A stretch of DNA of 64,000 nucleotides from an uncultured Clostridia bacterium (GCA_944375955.1 CALWBE010000057.1:5346-69345), one strand, 5' to 3'; shown: positions 2,803 to 37,165, counted from the first letter of the stretch. Notes: generated by a model from the letters alone, not told the origin. Numbers and translations are program-made.

Positions 2803-3501
2803 ATGAGCGGATATAATTCAGAAAATGATATAGTAAACGGAATGTTTGCATTAGCCGATGAAAAATATAAAAATTTTCAGGCGAAACTTATCCCGAATAT
2901 AGCAGAAGAAACGATTATGGGAATAAGGACTCCGGTTTTGCGGAAATACGCGAAAAAATTTTACAAAACCGAAGAGCGGGAAAAGTTTATTTCTGATCTT
3001 CCGCATAGGTTTTATGAAGAAAATAATCTTCATGCTTTTTTTATCGAACAGGAAAAGGATTTTAAAACCTGCATAAAATTGATAGATTTATTTCTTCCGT
3101 ATGTTGATAATTGGGCGACGTGCGATTTGATGTCTCCGGCAGTATTGAGAAAGAATAAAAAAGATTTGTATGAAAAAATAAAAGAGTGGATAAAGAGCGG
3201 TAAAACATATACGGTTCGATACGGACTTCACATGCTTATGGTACATTATCTTGATGATGATTTTTCTCCGGATTGTCTCTTGCTTGCGTCAGAGGTGCGT
3301 TCAGAGGAGTATTATGTCAACATGATGACAGCATGGTTTTTTGCCACGGCGCTTGCAAAGAGATACGAAGAAACTCTGCCGTATATTAAAGATCATAAAC
3401 TTTCCAGGTGGTGTCATAATAAAACGATATCTAAAGCGTGTGAAAGCTATCGTATAAGTGCTGATAAGAAAGAATATTTAAGATCTTTGAGGATAAAATA
3501 A
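2803..3501 (+). CDS. DNA alkylation repair protein (AlkD/AlkC-like HEAT-repeat family)
   Basis: 'YKNFQAKLIPN...IMGIRTPVLRKYAKKF', 'NWATCD' typical of the DNA_alkylation family. ATG 2803 chosen over the TTG at 2761. Confidence 0.75.
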   Translation: MSGYNSENDIVNGMFALADEKYKNFQAKLIPNIAEETIMGIRTPVLRKYAKKFYKTEEREKFISDLPHRFYEENNLHAFFIEQEKDFKTCIKLIDLFLPYVDNWATCDLMSPAVLRKNKKDLYEKIKEWIKSGKTYTVRYGLHMLMVHYLDDDFSPDCLLLASEVRSEEYYVNMMTAWFFATALAKRYEETLPYIKDHKLSRWCHNKTISKACESYRISADKKEYLRSLRIK

Positions 3502-3531
3502 GAAAAATAAAATCAAAATACTTTCATAAAT

Positions 3532-3573
3532 AAAAAAGCTGTCCCTTTAAAGATTTTAGGGACGGCTTTTTTG
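3532..3573. terminator. Bidirectional rho-independent terminator between convergent genes
   Basis: AAAAA-AGCTGTCCCT...AGGGACGGCT-TTTTTT hairpin flanked by an A-run and a T-run. Confidence 0.75.
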
Positions 3574-3595
3574 TATATGTGCTTCCAGATAAAGC

Positions 3596-4123
3596 CTACA
3601 TATCGTTATCTGATTTATATATTCCCGTTATTTCACAAACGTACATTTCATGAAAGTCACCTGCAGAATAGCATGAATCGATGATACTTTTATCGATGAA
3701 TGAATTTTTGTCAATATATTGAGCGAAAAGTTTTTTTCCGACAATTGTAACAGACGCTTCTTTAAAAAAGACGGCGTTGTTTTCAATATAAGGAGTAAGC
3801 CCCGCCTCCGATATTTTGTCACAGTCGCGTCCGGAAAGCTTCCCGCACTTTGTAAGAGCCTGACGGTAAGATTCATTGAAGAAAGAAAGAGAAATTGTAT
3901 CTGATGCGTCTATAAATTCTTTAGTGAAACGCTGGGGCCTTATAAAGCAGAAAAATACATTTTTTCCCCAAAGTACTCCGAAGCCTCCCCAGCTTGCGGT
4001 CATGGTATTCAGTTTTTTGTCAGTACGGCTTTCATCGCATGCAGATATAAGCATCCAGTCGCTGCCTATTTTTTTAAAGACATTGAATTCAGCGTTTTCA
4101 GGAGAGATTTTTTTCAAATTCAT
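3596..4123 (-). CDS. Flavin reductase-like (FMN-binding split-barrel) family protein
   Basis: 'NTMTASWGGFGVLWGKNVFFCFIRPQR' resembles flavin reductase domain proteins. Start at MNLKKISP. Confidence 0.65.
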   Translation of the reverse strand: MNLKKISPENAEFNVFKKIGSDWMLISACDESRTDKKLNTMTASWGGFGVLWGKNVFFCFIRPQRFTKEFIDASDTISLSFFNESYRQALTKCGKLSGRDCDKISEAGLTPYIENNAVFFKEASVTIVGKKLFAQYIDKNSFIDKSIIDSCYSAGDFHEMYVCEITGIYKSDNDM

Positions 4124-28050: not shown

Positions 28051-28404
28051 GGGGGCGTAAAGGTTTCGACGGGGAAGTTAATACACGATAAGCGAGCAGA
28101 GGTGCGGAAGCTCTTTAAAACGCCGTATTTTAAAATTAAACGCTAAGAATAATAAATTAGCTCTCGCTGCCTGACTTACGGCAGCCATCGTGCCGATGAG
28201 TACTGCGGCTTCGGATACGGTGTCATTTAGCAGTGAACGTGAGACAGAATAAGCTTTGCCGCTGTCCATGATTTTATGAAGCTACCGAAACTGTCTGTTT
28301 GTTTGTTGATGGACTGTTTTGGGAATTTTAACAACAAACTGCGCTCGGAGAAGGTTGTGTAAAGATTTTTTCGGACAGGGGTTCAATTCCCCTCGCCTCC
28401 ACCA
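28051..28404 (+). ncRNA. ssrA: tmRNA (SsrA), one-piece
   Basis: 5' GGGGGCG pairs with 3' CGCCUCC-ACCA, including the G3:U wobble. 'GGUUUCGACGGGG' start and T-arm 'GGGGUUCAAUUCCCC'. Tag reading frame 28142-28174 encodes AKNNKLALAA*. Confidence 0.95.
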
Positions 28405-28408
28405 TTCC

Positions 28409-28447
28409 AGACCACCATTTGATGAAAATCAAGTGGTGGTCTTTTCT
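28409..28447 (+). terminator. tmRNA terminator
   Basis: AGACCACCA-15 nt-TGGTGGTCT followed by TTTCTC. Confidence 0.7.
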
Positions 28448-28780
28448 CATTATCAAAGGAATGTACTTTGCCTGTAAAACCGAGGATATAAAAAATATTG
28501 AGGGCTATGATGACATATGGCTTTTACAAAATCCGAACCCGAACAAACGCCAGAAACCCTTGAAAATAAAAGTGTTTCGAGCATATCCGACACACCCGAA
28601 ACACTAACGTATAAAAGTATTAAACATAACTACTTATATTATTATATCGTTCCTACATCTTATAGTCGTTCCATTATTAAAGCACTACTACAAAATATTA
28701 TTTATTATGGTAGAGAGAGTTCGAGAAGTTCTTGTTCAAAAATTATTTTCAAAAAAGTTCTTTTAAAAGTTCCTCAACTT

Positions 28781-28809
28781 TTGAAAAATGTCAAATTATG
28801 TGCTATAAT
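28781..28809 (+). promoter_or_regulatory. Strong promoter of the island operon
   Basis: TTGAAA-17 nt-TATAAT with an extended -10 TG (tgcTATAAT). The palindrome AAAAGTTcctcAACTTTT (28765-28783) overlaps the -35. AAGTTCYT is repeated at 28726, 28755 and 28767. Confidence 0.65.
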
Positions 28810-28837
28810 TATTGTGTGTGGTGAAAGGGACGCTAAT

Positions 28838-29881
28838 ATGGACGATGAAAAGAAAATAAAAATAGTCAATGAAATAATAAATGATGCTTTCTGGTTAAGT
28901 TATATATTAGAGTTGAAAAGAAAACTTACTGATTATAACACAAAAGAAGTTTTAACCCATTTTTTGTTGTTTTATGGCTCGATTTTTTGCGGAGAGACCA
29001 TATCTGCAAAATTTGGCGGTATGGCAAAAAGTGCTACAACAACAGAACAAGAGATTGAAGAGTTCAGAAATAATAATCTAAAGCATTGTTACACAATGAC
29101 ATCTAATACCGCTAAAAGAGTTATCGAGCAAATGGGTATAGATTTAGATAATTACGTGTTTGATATAGTTCTAACATTGAACGATTCAACTCTGTTAGAT
29201 ACGAATTTCCGAAGTTGGAATTACAACAAAGCGGAAAAAGAAAAACTGTTGGAGTGCGTTGTTTCAACTCCAAACGCTTGGGTTGAAGAATTGATGCCAG
29301 ATATTTATGAGACGGCATTGGATTTATTGAAAGAACATACAGAGAATTTAGTTAATAAGTTGTCGTGCAATCAAATAACTCAAAAGTCATATTCTTCACA
29401 AAAACTATATATAAACTCTATTTTGACTTCCAATGATAAAATATACATTTTACAACGTTATGGACACGTTAAGTTATTGAGTTTCTTTGATGCATTGTTT
29501 GAAAAAGGCATTTCAATCAAGTATAAAGGTCTTGTTATTGATTCAAAGACGTTCCTGACAAAGTGTAAGGCAATTCTAATTGAGATGCTTTATAACGACT
29601 CAAAAAGCAATAATATTGCAGTGTTAGACGAAATCTTTCTGCTAAACAAAAATACCATACCGCCAGAGTTTTATCCGAAAAACAGGAGCATAAGAGACAA
29701 CTTGCATTATGGGGACTACCACTATTTATCGGACGAGGAATGGAAACTAGTCCAAGAGTATCAAGATGTTTATCTAAAAAATGTGTTAGACGTTTTTGAT
29801 AAGAATATTTCGTATAATTTTGGCTTTGCTTATAAAATTGGCTTGTGGTTAGCAAAAGTATATAAATGGAGTAACGAATAG
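28838..29881 (+). CDS. Hypothetical protein (348 aa), very AT-rich, apparently all-alpha, no recognised family
   Basis: ATG 28838 lies 8 nt after GAAAGGGA and downstream of the promoter at 28781-28809. Sampled 60-nt lines are about 20-25% GC, against about 45-50% in sampled core genes. The only motif-like element is 'RSIRDNLH' near the C-terminus. Confidence 0.7.
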   Translation: MDDEKKIKIVNEIINDAFWLSYILELKRKLTDYNTKEVLTHFLLFYGSIFCGETISAKFGGMAKSATTTEQEIEEFRNNNLKHCYTMTSNTAKRVIEQMGIDLDNYVFDIVLTLNDSTLLDTNFRSWNYNKAEKEKLLECVVSTPNAWVEELMPDIYETALDLLKEHTENLVNKLSCNQITQKSYSSQKLYINSILTSNDKIYILQRYGHVKLLSFFDALFEKGISIKYKGLVIDSKTFLTKCKAILIEMLYNDSKSNNIAVLDEIFLLNKNTIPPEFYPKNRSIRDNLHYGDYHYLSDEEWKLVQEYQDVYLKNVLDVFDKNISYNFGFAYKIGLWLAKVYKWSNE

Positions 29882-29896
29882 TATAGAGGTGATAAA

Positions 29897-31027
29897 ATGG
29901 CAAACAAGAAACTTTCCGAAGCAAAAAACGCAAAAAATGATGAGTTCTACACTCAATATGAAGATATACAGAGAGAAGTCAATGCTTATCTGGAATACAA
30001 CCCAGATGTATTTAGAGGCAAAACAATTCTGCTCCCCTGTGATGACCCAGAGTGGAGCAACTTCACAAGGTTCTTTGCACAGAACTTTGAAAATTTCGGA
30101 TTGAAGAAGTTGATAAGTACCAGTTTTGCATATGAGAGCAAGAACTTCAAAGAGGGGTATCAGTTATCTTTCTTTGAAACTGAATCCCCCGAATATGACG
30201 AGGACAAGACAAAGACACACGGAAAGATATTTACTCTTACGAGAGACAGCAACAAGTCTGGTGCTATTGATATTGACGATTTGGAGTGGCACTATTTAGA
30301 GGGGGACGGAGATTTTAGAAGTGATGAGGTAAAGGCTTTAAGAGACGAGGCTGACATAATCGTTACTAATCCACCGTTTTCTTTGTATAGGGACTTTATT
30401 GATTGGATTTTTGAAAAAGAAAAGAAGTTCATAATTATAGGAAACAAAAATAGTGTTACATACAAAGAGGTATTCCCTTTGATTATGAATAACAAAATGT
30501 GGTCTGGTAAGACAGGCTGGGGCGGTGGAATGTGGTTTGAAACCAAGAATCCCGCCGATGTTGATAAGGTTGTAAATGGAATAAATATGAAGAATGTTTC
30601 TTCTGTGTGGTTTTCAAACATCGAACACGGAAAACGCCACGAGCCTTTGTCTCTTATGACAATGGCAGATAATGTAAAGTTTAGCAAACACAAAGAAGTG
30701 AGAGACAAGGGATATAGCCATTACGATAATTATGACGGAATAGAAGTTCCATTTACAGATGCTATCCCAAGTGATTATGACGGAATAATGGGCGTTCCGA
30801 TTAGTTTTTTAGAAAAATATTGTCCAGAACAATTTGAAATATTAGGTATGTGCGAAAATCTTGATTTGTATGGATTGAAAACAAAAGTATATACAACGCA
30901 AGAGTGCCAAGATAGATATTTTGAATTGTTTGGGAAGAAAGGTACTTATGATTTGAACGCCGCAGGAGTCGTTGATGGTATTAAAGTATATCAGCGAATC
31001 CTAATAAGAAAGAGGGTGCAAGAATGA
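29897..31027 (+). CDS. N6-adenine DNA methyltransferase, EcoRI-methylase-like family
   Basis: N-terminal '[12 protein letters not shown]' and '[13 protein letters not shown]', catalytic motif IV 'IVTNPPFS'. GAGGTG RBS. Confidence 0.8.
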
Positions 31028-32187
31028 TTACCACATTAGTAACTGACATAACAGTTGAGGATATATGCAAAGGCTTTGTATATAACGAGTATGAGGGTAA
31101 AGGTCTGTTTGGTCTTTCTGGAAAATTGGTTATTCAGCCAGAGTATCAGCGTAATTATATCTATGCTGACGGAAAGCGTGATGTGGCTGTTATTGATTCC
31201 ATTCTCAAAGGCTATCCTCTGGGACTTATCTACTTTACCAAAGTTGCAGAAGATAAATATGAGGTTTTGGACGGACAACAGCGTATTACCAGTTTTGGAC
31301 GATATGTAACAGGCAAGTTTGCCATTAACGACCAGAACGGCATACCGAGATACTTCTCTGGACTTGCAAAGGATATGCAGGACAAGATAATGCAGACTAC
31401 CTTGACTATCTATATCTGTGAGGGTACAGAGAGTGAAATCAAGGAATGGTTCAAGACTATCAATATCGCAGGCATACCCCTTAACGAGCAGGAACTTTCA
31501 AACGCTATTCATTCGGGACCCTTTGTAACCAAAGCAAAAGAGGAGTTTTCCAACAGCCAGAACGCCAATATCCAGAAATGGAGTGCGTACATATCTGGTA
31601 GTGTTATAAGACAGGACTATTTGCGTACTGCTCTTGAATGGGTAAGCAAGGGCAATATTGACGATTATATGAGTAAGCACAGATACGATGACAACATAAA
31701 CGAGTTGAGAGCATATTTCACAAGCGTTATTGATTGGGTATCAAGTGTCTTTACTGATGTTGAAAGCGAAATGAGAGGTCTGCCTTGGGGTGAGTTCTAC
31801 GAGCAGTACCACACAAACGCTTATGCTCCCGATGAAGTGTCGGCTAAACTGAAAGAACTGTATTCTGACTTTTATGTTAAGGATAAAAAGGGTGTATATG
31901 AGTATATACTCGGTGGCTGTACCGACAGCAAACTCCTTAACATTCGAGTATTTGACGAGCCTACCAAAAAGACAGTTTATACACGCCAGACCGAAGAAGC
32001 AAAGAGCAGTAATGTTTCAAACTGTCCTCTCTGTGCTATGGGTAGCGACAACAATAAAACCCGTGTATGGAAAATAACAGAAATGGATGCAGACCACGTT
32101 ACCGCTTGGAGCAAAGGCGGAGCTACAGATATAAAGAATTGTCAGATGCTTTGCAAAACACATAACCGAGCAAAAGGCAATAAATAA
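31024..32187 (+). CDS. DUF262 (ParB/GmrS-like NTPase) - HNH endonuclease fusion protein
   Basis: '[11 protein letters not shown]', '[11 protein letters not shown]' (DUF262 hallmarks). C-terminal HNH 'CPLC...[33 protein letters not shown]'. The start overlaps the MTase stop (ATGA at 31024-31027). Confidence 0.85.
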
Positions 32188-32364
32188 TAGTTATATTCTG
32201 GCGTATTCTGTCTATAATATATTGTGGGTCTTTTCACACCCTCCTCTCATATCTGTATCAACACAAACACAGACAGGGGTAGGAATTAGAATGGACGGAA
32301 TATAAAATTGGTTTATTCCTGCCGTTAAGGCAGGTGTAAAATAAAAATGGTTGGAAGAAAAACA

Positions 32365-32408
32365 ACCGCCAGAGTGTATGTTACTACATTCTGGCGGTCT
32401 GCTTTTGT
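32365..32408 (+). terminator. Rho-independent terminator at the right edge of the island
   Basis: ACCGCCAGA-16 nt-TCTGGCGGT followed by CTGCTTTTGT. Confidence 0.65.
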
Positions 32409-36081: not shown

Positions 36082-36449
36082 AGTTAAATTCCTCCTTACT
36101 CGATATTTTCGGTACCGCACCTATATTATCACACACGATTTGCATAAAAAAAAGCGATTTAAAAATGAGTTTTATTTCAACTTTGCGTTGAATATGTTGT
36201 ATCACATTTCAAAGAAATATTCAAGATTGATTTTACGCTATACCGTAAAATCAAAATGTACTTCAAAATCGCGATCGACAGCTAAGTAAAAATAGAAAGA
36301 ACAAAATGAATCAAAGTGCCAATAAAATAAGAAAATCGCGCGTTGTAAAATGAAGTTGCGCATTTAGTCAAACAAAAAGGTCCATAGCGAGGATCTCTGT
36401 GTTAGAATCAATCTGCTACAAAAGATCAACACAGAAAGAGGCAATCGCT

Positions 36450-36863
36450 ATGGACTACCCCAATCATATCACAAATCACGAAAAAGGTAAACACTTAGAT
36501 TACGAAGATTATGTGGTAATTGAGCTTCGGCTGAAAGACGGCTGGAAGCCCAATGCCATCGCTAAGAAGGAACTACATTGTGCGGCCAATACCGTGCGCA
36601 ACATCATCAAGAAGGGTATGACATCGCTGTACAATGGCAAGGTGTTCCGTTTCAAGGCCAAGACTGCATGGAAAGCTTATCAGGAAAACAGAAGCCACAG
36701 CTGCCGGACATACGAAGCCCTGGAGAAGCATCCTTTCTTGCAGTATGTGGAGAGGCACTTTCAGGAGGATCAGTGGTCGTTGGATGCCTGCGTCGGTCGT
36801 GCGCTGGAAGAGGGCAGCTTTGACAGAAGTGAGATCCTGTGTACAAAAACCCTCTATAACTAA
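36450..36863 (+). pseudogene. Truncated IS30-family transposase (N-terminal HTH part only, about 138 aa; DDE domain missing)
   Basis: 'MDYPNHITNHEKGKHLDYEDYVVIELRLKDGWKPNAIAKKELHCAANTVRNIIKKG...' resembles IS30-type N-termini. Locally GC-rich, with ORFs open in several frames on both strands. The 10-bp inverted repeat TCCATAGCGA/TCGCTATGGA (36382-36391 / 36443-36452) brackets the start codon. Confidence 0.6.
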
Positions 36864-36966: not shown

Positions 36967-37060
36967 TGGCGGAGAAGGGGAGATTTGAACTCCCGCGCCG
37001 GTAAACCCGACCTACACCCTTAGCAGGGGCGCCTCTTCGGCCAACTTGAGTACTTCTCCG
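36967..37060 (-). tRNA. tRNA-Ser (anticodon GCU)
   Basis: Reverse complement GGAGAAGTACTCAAGTTGG...CCC-CTGCTAA-GGG...long variable arm...GGGAGTTCAAATCTCCCCTTCTCCGCCA. Confidence 0.93.
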
Positions 37061-37076
37061 AATATAAAAAACAATA

Positions 37077-37165
37077 TGGCGGAGAGGAAGGGATTCGAAC
37101 CCTTGTGCCCTCGCGGACAAACGGTTTTCAAGACCGCCTCGTTATGACCACTTCGATACCTCTCC
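37077..37165 (-). tRNA. tRNA-Ser (anticodon UGA)
   Basis: Reverse complement GGAGAGGTATCGAAGTGG...GCGGT-CTTGAAA-ACCGT...variable arm...AAGGGTTCGAATCCCTTCCTCTCCGCCA. Confidence 0.93.

Follow-up and report, generated by a model that had tools for sequence, protein, structure and literature searches.

A gut-associated protein family with a conserved R/H motif, proposed as a HEPN-like defense RNase, at a variable tmRNA-linked island of an uncultured Clostridia bacterium

The gene at positions 28838..29881 (+) of a 64,000-nucleotide (nt) stretch of DNA from an uncultured Clostridia bacterium (GCA_944375955.1 CALWBE010000057.1:5346-69345; the whole stretch is referred to here as the window) codes for a 347-amino-acid (aa) protein of an unannotated family and lies directly ahead of a type II restriction-modification (RM) gene pair. 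We propose, with a probability of about 0.5, that the protein is an autonomous, two-domain HEPN-like ribonuclease (RNase) effector acting in abortive infection or defense, and that it belongs to the cargo of mobile or variable islands and is not a subunit of the RM system. What we infer here is the HEPN fold, catalysis as an RNase, sensing by the N-terminal region, and a defense phenotype. A preliminary description of this locus had offered a restriction or specificity component, an abortive-infection effector, or a regulator as possible roles, and of these the abortive-infection effector survives. HEPN-type defense RNases in RM and defense islands are already well known, but the family itself is uncataloged. 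If the proposal is correct, it is a family of solo HEPN-like defense RNases specific to gut Clostridia and Bacilli, with an unusual double-arginine catalytic motif and an uncharacterized sensor region of ~190 residues, and one that is missed by current profile sets (PADLOC, Pfam, NCBIfam, and PHROGs).

A protein family with a near-invariant R/H signature

The gene was at first taken for an orphan, but it has many relatives. A word-indexed search recovers 34 clusters with 40 to 99% identity, none of them named or carrying a Pfam domain, and an exhaustive search with a profile, covering 1.84 billion representatives, finds 152 representative clusters, 73 of them at E<=1e-30. Genome matches are nearly all to metagenome-assembled genomes of uncultured Clostridia, Oscillospiraceae, Lachnospiraceae, and Bacilli from gut samples; as sampled by these searches, the family is small, uncataloged, and mostly from gut Firmicutes. 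Scans of the window protein against Pfam, NCBIfam, PADLOC, and PHROGs give no meaningful match, sequence searches of the PDB with three profiles return chance matches only (choline kinase, MsbA, and uracil-DNA glycosylase), and a text search of the literature with the motif strings found nothing.

The strongest feature of the family is the element RSIRDNLH, which had been singled out earlier as catalytic looking and placed about 70 aa from the C terminus. It is present, at residues 283 to 290 and thus 57 to 64 aa from the C terminus, and it is the most conserved part of the protein. Across a panel of 76 diverse members, extending down to 18% identity, the signature NRSIRDNLHY (residues 282 to 291; 29681..29710, +) has the consensus F-[FY]-x-[LI]-N-R-K-x-R-[ND]-N-[IL]-H-Y and contains a putative catalytic Rx6H (R283...H290) together with a second arginine, R286. 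H290 is present in 76/76 members, R286 and Y291 each in 75/76, and R283, N282, and N288 each in 73/76. A lone Rx4-6H arises by chance in 31% of shuffles of the protein sequence, so the motif carries weight only because it is held throughout the family.

The sole invariant residues among the 76 members are R77 and H290. Conservation is at least 96% for N282, R283, R286, N288, Y291, Q309, Y312, and K242, and at a threshold of 90% or more the set is extended by D16, E53, K82, D109, Y185, F191, I248, and F278. Within the N-terminal region the conserved residues are E12, D16, E53, R77, K82, D109, and N123. R77 and K82 form an R-x4-K element (29066..29083, +) that ends the helix spanning residues 70 to 82, with position 82 being K in 69/76 members and H in 6/76; the significance of this element is hypothetical.

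We note that a subfamily of 443 to 458 aa (P0037, P0039, P0041, P0043, P0044, P0046, P0049, and P0051) is truly longer at the N terminus, by a domain of ~100 aa (MKKIIFLVD...(K)W-x-LP). To the eye, this domain resembles the start of Nudix-like domains (W-x-LP), with no Pfam match, and it is unrelated to the spurious upstream extension of the window gene described below.

Predicted structure and probable HEPN membership

The AlphaFold2 (AF2) model of the full-length protein has a predicted local distance difference test score (pLDDT) of 84 and a predicted template modeling score (pTM) of 0.88. It is mostly helical, as guessed from the sequence, with a few short strands that an all-alpha description leaves out. 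Foldseek comparison of this model with the PDB and BFVD gives nothing significant, the PDB match of highest probability being the HEPN protein 2hsb, and the N-terminal region (residues 1 to 192; 28838..29413, +), which is modeled as alpha/beta, has no fold match in either database. The C-terminal helical domain (residues 193 to 347; 29414..29878, +) is modeled with a pLDDT of 90, and when this model is used as the query, HEPN proteins account for 8 of the 12 best-ranked PDB chains. Among them are the HepT toxin SO_3166 (5yep_C; E 0.26, probability 0.77), the HEPN domain protein 2hsb (E 0.33, probability 0.66), a second HepT (7bxo_H; E 0.61, probability 0.54), and the HEPN domain protein 4nqf_A (E 0.81, probability 0.63, template modeling [TM] score 0.46/0.48), with further HEPN matches to 1ylm, 6m6w, 8yuf, and 3jrt. 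The Foldseek check suggested by the preliminary description places HEPN proteins as the best matches of this domain, all of them below significance.

HEPN domains are defined as four-helix bundles with frequent inserts between helices 2 and 3, with the motif at the end of helix 3 or the start of the loop between helices 3 and 4, a polar N, D, or H following the motif arginine, and an acidic side chain contributed by helix 2, typically as Ex3[KR] (PMC3710099). The C-terminal model consists of a helix (198 to 220), a beta-hairpin, a second helix (236 to 257), an extra helix (261 to 273), a third core helix (278 to 290) that has H290 as its last residue and is followed by a loop, and a final helix (299 to 322) that bears Q309 and Y312. 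As modeled, this topology fits the HEPN layout, including the insert between helices 2 and 3 and the motif at the end of helix 3.

We consider membership in the HEPN superfamily likely but unproven, since a profile comparison with DUF86/HepT using hhalign is negative (probability ~1% or less). The DUF86 profile consisted of real proteins, all carrying PF01934, that were retrieved with a consensus sequence. The Abi_2 model (PF07751; Abi2/AbiD/AbiF) has no Pfam match in the protein or in the 76 members, and the protein is not assignable to any named HEPN family. The HEPN resemblance proposed earlier is thus favored by the conservation of the motif, its position at a helix end, and the HEPN toxins at the top of the structural matches, and it is limited by the subsignificant scores and the negative profile test.

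Proposed mode of action and points against it

In the mechanism that we favor, the C-terminal ~155 residues would form a HEPN-like helical bundle, and the motif that closes the third core helix would provide a metal-independent endoribonuclease site. H290 would act with R283 and R286, and probably with N282, N288, and Y291, in an active site that probably forms where two protomers meet in a dimer. The N-terminal region of ~190 residues would sense infection, holding the RNase inactive until an infection cue is received. Cotranscription with a self-sufficient type II RM pair would add an RNA-level layer to the DNA-level defense, with no dependence of the RNase on that pair.

Several observations weigh against this proposal. 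All structural matches of the C-terminal domain are below significance (E 0.26 to 1, TM 0.40 to 0.48), and four-helix bundles are common; the failure to find similarity to the DUF86/HepT profile is a further point. The motif is atypical compared with canonical HEPN motifs: R283-x6-H290 is at the upper limit of the known HEPN range, R283 is followed by K or S, and although N or D follows R286 in 72/76 members, R286 is only x3 from the histidine. The acidic residue of helix 2 is represented by E/D249 in 52/76 members (68%), without an Ex3[KR] context. Pfam, PADLOC, and PHROGs scans of the 76 members give no meaningful match, with none in Pfam at E<=1, and there is no evident antitoxin or inhibitor. 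Viral and plasmid collections hold almost no members of the family: tblastn finds no member in phage GenBank records and no match in PLSDB plasmids even at E=10, and IMG/VR has a single distant relative among 2.9 million viral contigs (IMGVR_UViG_3300029305_006696, positions 1181-2206, 24% identity).

A variant of the HEPN interpretation, which we regard as doubtful, is a single-chain tandem arrangement in which the N-terminal half is a degenerate second HEPN domain that pairs intramolecularly with the C-terminal NRxxRxNxHY domain to build a single composite RNase site in the manner of Cas13. Two long helices are modeled in the N-terminal half, the second of which ends in E53 (95% conserved), and they are followed by a helix ending in R77-x4-K/H82. 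Alignment of the two halves of the protein with each other by hhalign detects no internal duplication. If true, the protein would be a compact, monomeric, self-gated defense RNase of a family not yet cataloged.

Of similarly low probability is that the protein is a noncatalytic helical protein of mobile elements, with the R/H motif serving in ligand binding and the protein acting in RNA or nucleotide binding, in exclusion through binding of a phage protein, or in antidefense. The subsignificant fold assignment and the lack of any fold match for the N-terminal region are in keeping with this, as is the frequent finding of the gene at the border of elements that encode serine or tyrosine recombinases or Mob relaxases, and some HEPN domains are noncatalytic binders (PMC3710099). 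However, catalytic sites typically show this pattern of a strictly kept histidine with two arginines and two asparagines on the same helix, and RNase activity has generally been predicted or demonstrated for HEPN domains that keep the motif (PMC3710099). A phage-borne antidefense role in particular fits poorly with the near absence of the family from phage genomes.

Independence from the adjacent restriction-modification genes

The two genes that follow are an EcoRI-like N6-adenine DNA methyltransferase (MTase; 29897..31027, +; PF13651, 1.6e-116; PADLOC MTase_II) and a restriction endonuclease (REase; 31024..32187, +; PADLOC REase_II, 1.6e-92) with DUF262 (GmrSD_N/ParB-like) and HNH domains recognized by Pfam, the REase start overlapping the MTase stop by 4 nt. 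Reciprocal co-occurrence tests were made with relatives of each module. Among 67 loci with homologs of the gene, not one has an MTase or REase relative within 6 to 8 kb. Conversely, none of 80 metagenomic loci with REase relatives (71 to 81% identity; L077-L156, from rumen, sludge, marine, and soil samples) has a homolog of the gene, and in 76 of those 80 loci (counted as 76/76) the MTase directly precedes the REase. Because both tests return zero, we regard the MTase-REase pair as a self-sufficient, widely traveled module and the gene as a separate one. No conserved upstream partner of the RM pair was found among its relatives, whose upstream content is heterogeneous.

Relatives of the pair are present in more than 589 metagenomic stretches from diverse habitats, always in the order MTase then REase, with 71 to 81% amino acid identity for the REase and ~55% for the MTase, which indicates that the EcoRI-like MTase and DUF262-HNH REase make up a highly mobile type II RM module. 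In one of these (L151), a 143-aa open reading frame (ORF) at 3365-3793 (+), 120 nt upstream of the pair, carries RNRIIHSF, an Rx4H of canonical form whose R is followed by N. It has no Pfam match and, placed as the gene is here, may represent another small HEPN-like gene of a different kind.

The neighborhoods of the gene's own homologs are varied. Nucleases among the neighbors include MmeI, Mrr_cat+FtsK_gamma, DUF1016/YhcG, DpnI, and HNH_2, and there is also DUF4379+MTES_1575, which is the PADLOC candidate PDC-S02; others are SieB, RhuM/DUF6904, and a weak TIR match. Mobile-element genes (serine and tyrosine recombinases and Mob_Pre/Mob relaxases) are found as well, and no nucleotidyltransferase (MNT) neighbor is present in the window or in the homolog loci. 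In the closest relatives, the nearest same-strand gene, 15 to 62 nt away, codes for a DNA-targeting nuclease (the MTase-REase pair here, and Mrr_cat, MmeI, DUF1016/YhcG, or DUF4379+MTES_1575 elsewhere), but many homologs have no nuclease neighbor and are flanked instead by recombinases, SieB, unknowns, or housekeeping genes. Such varied neighbors are the signature of what is probably accessory defense cargo without an obligate partner.

The close spacing to nucleases in the nearest relatives gives some reason to consider a guard of the PrrC type, in which the protein is silenced by contact with the adjacent restriction enzyme and fires as an RNase once a phage antirestriction factor disables that enzyme, so that the adjacency is itself functional. 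This follows the PrrC/PrrI paradigm, and RM-linked HEPN proteins have been proposed to act in this way (PMC3710099). We think it improbable, more so than a noncatalytic role: the partner families are structurally unrelated, making specific inhibitory contacts with each of them unlikely, many homologs have no such neighbor, the RM pair lacks the gene in 80/80 loci, and the protein has no ABC-ATPase or P-loop domain, the lack of a P-loop having been noted previously and agreeing with the absence of a Walker A motif. For the autonomous effector, too, the lack of any conserved partner speaks against specific inhibitory contact of the PrrC kind.

That the gene codes for a specificity, control, or second nuclease subunit of the adjacent type II system is very improbable, since the 15-nt spacing, the shared strand, and what appear to be one promoter and one terminator for three genes are set against 0/67 and 0/80 in the co-occurrence tests and against library scans of the protein and the 76 members that give no helix-turn-helix, target recognition domain, or nuclease-family match; the same results speak against the restriction or specificity component suggested earlier and, with no DNA-binding match of any kind, against the regulator.

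Comparison with known systems

Many HEPN clades associate with RM systems, including operons with a ParB nuclease and a methylase; in particular, Abi2/AbiD/AbiF and MAE_28990 are both reported from operons that combine a DNA methylase with a ParB nuclease, either with HNH or lacking it, and layered defense has been proposed for many of the RM-linked clades (PMC3710099). The family described here resembles these RNases in a modeled all-alpha domain whose conserved R...H motif closes a core helix, in its adjacency to RM genes (here a ParB-like [DUF262]+HNH nuclease and a methylase), and in a mobile, patchy distribution. The overall size of the protein is similar to that of AbiD/AbiF. It differs in having no sequence or profile match to the Pfam HEPN/Abi families, in a motif of the form NRxxR[ND]NxHY (Rx6H, or Rx3H from the inner arginine) as opposed to R[NDH]xxxH, and in that the link to this RM pair is not conserved. 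Architectures combining an N-terminal domain with HEPN are known (PMC3710099), but the ~190-residue N-terminal region here is not one of the N-terminal domains described in association with HEPN.

The best structural matches are the HepT/DUF86 toxins (5yep, 7bxo, and 6m6w) and the small HEPN proteins 2hsb, 4nqf, and 1ylm, with TM scores of only 0.40 to 0.48. HepT shares a tyrosine near the catalytic histidine (RxxxxHxY in HepT, HY here), but there is no profile-profile similarity and no MNT antitoxin neighbor, and the protein here is three times larger, with the extra N-terminal region. PrrC of EcoprrI, an RM-guarded anticodon nuclease, likewise is a HEPN-type RNase encoded inside an RM locus, giving layered DNA and RNA defense. 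In anticodon nucleases of the PrrC/RloC type, however, an N-terminal ABC-ATPase with a Walker A motif is joined to a C-terminal HEPN domain, and the association of PrrC with a type Ic RM system is conserved, in contrast to the protein here, which has no Walker A or ATPase match and whose RM link is not conserved.

The best functional analogy for an autonomous sensor-effector is HepS ("HEPN solo"), a prophage-encoded abortive-infection anticodon nuclease (PMC13043305), which is also a single-gene HEPN defense protein without a conserved partner or inhibitor and an accessory cargo of mobile elements. HepS is small, single domain, and prophage borne in Enterobacteria, with a canonical R100-x4-H105, whereas the family here has two regions, an atypical motif, and a Firmicutes distribution, and is almost absent from viral contigs. 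The 50 best Foldseek matches of the C-terminal domain do not include HepS.

Gene boundaries, expression signals, and composition

The gene is real, with its stop at 29881, and the ATG at 28838 is the right start: homologs in 33 clusters are 343 to 361 aa in length and align from residue 1, and Met is at the first aligned column in 93% of the 76-member panel. The product is 347 aa and not 348 as first reported. The frame is open upstream to 28517, adding 107 codons (28517-28837), and public gene calls accordingly give 454 aa (P0001 and the genes in L068-L076). We reject this longer product as overextended, because a predicted promoter lies inside the extension, its G+C content at third codon positions (GC3) is 21.5% compared with 33.6% in the gene, and the homologs lack it, thus correcting a recurrent misannotation.

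As the preliminary description had it, the gene is the first of what is probably an operon, and the MTase ATG at 29897 begins 15 nt past its end. It is also the first gene 3' of the transfer-messenger RNA (tmRNA) gene and is on the same strand as the MTase and REase genes. A predicted sigma-70-like promoter (28781..28809, +; TTGAAA-17 nt-TATAAT with an extended -10 TG, TGcTATAAT; 11/12 matches) was located by sequence scan, and a putative ribosome-binding site, GAAAGGG (28823..28829, +), is 8 nt before the ATG. A terminator-like hairpin (32365..32398, +) probably ends the three-gene transcription unit, and the three genes are probably cotranscribed. We also note a 16-pair palindromic hairpin (AGTGTTTCG...CGAAACACT) at 28571-28605, between the tmRNA terminator and the gene promoter, which was scored as a minus-strand terminator by the scan and might serve as an insulator or operator or be left over from recombination.

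The gene has a G+C content of 31.8%, which is the lowest of the 41 window ORFs of at least 200 aa (mean ± standard deviation: G+C 39.6 ± 2.9%, GC3 34.5 ± 3.4%), and it is more AT-rich than its two partners, as had been pointed out (MTase, G+C 37.2% and GC3 38.2%; REase, G+C 41.2% and GC3 41.8%). Its GC3 equals the window mean, which places the source of the AT-richness in a K/N/I/L/Y-rich protein and not in a distinct mutational history; the counted composition (L 11.8, K 9.8, N 8.4, I 8.1, and E 7.5%) bears out the L/K/E/N-rich character reported before. AT-richness by itself is no evidence for foreign origin, and the mosaic assembly that had been drawn from it is backed by comparative genomics but not by base composition.

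The tmRNA island

The gene lies in an island, as the preliminary description supposed. The tmRNA (ssrA) gene (28051..28404, +; ARAGORN, and Rfam RF00023 with 173 bits) ends in a 3' CCA that is the exact left island junction: contigs of other strains (L159-L163) are 98 to 100% identical up to 28404/28405 and then diverge, with at least four unrelated sequences following the ...CCTCCACCA end of the tmRNA in different strains. Since strain homology stops at the tmRNA 3' end, the gene is the first of a strain-variable insert at a classical ssrA integration point, and the locus offers a clean example of defense genes shuffled as independent modules into a hypervariable slot. A terminator-like hairpin just past the tmRNA (28409..28442, +; hairpin scan and strain comparison) is already within strain-variable sequence. 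No integrase is present in the 4-kb insert. All contigs that share the identical downstream gene have the REase too, so their comparison yields no right island boundary. A search for an attachment-like direct repeat of the tmRNA 3' end gives only an 11/12 match, which brackets the three-gene insert (GGTCTTTTCTCA at 28437-28448 and GGTCTTTTCACA at 32227-32238), but it is too weak to be taken as an attachment-like site or insertion scar, with an estimated ~0.2 such matches expected by chance.

The tmRNA 3' end is a hypervariable integration slot at which many assemblies break. Elsewhere in the window, two adjacent tRNA-Ser genes (GCT and TGA anticodons; 36967-37165, -) lie in a locally GC-rich patch, adjoined by a 154-aa ORF at 36399-36863 (+).
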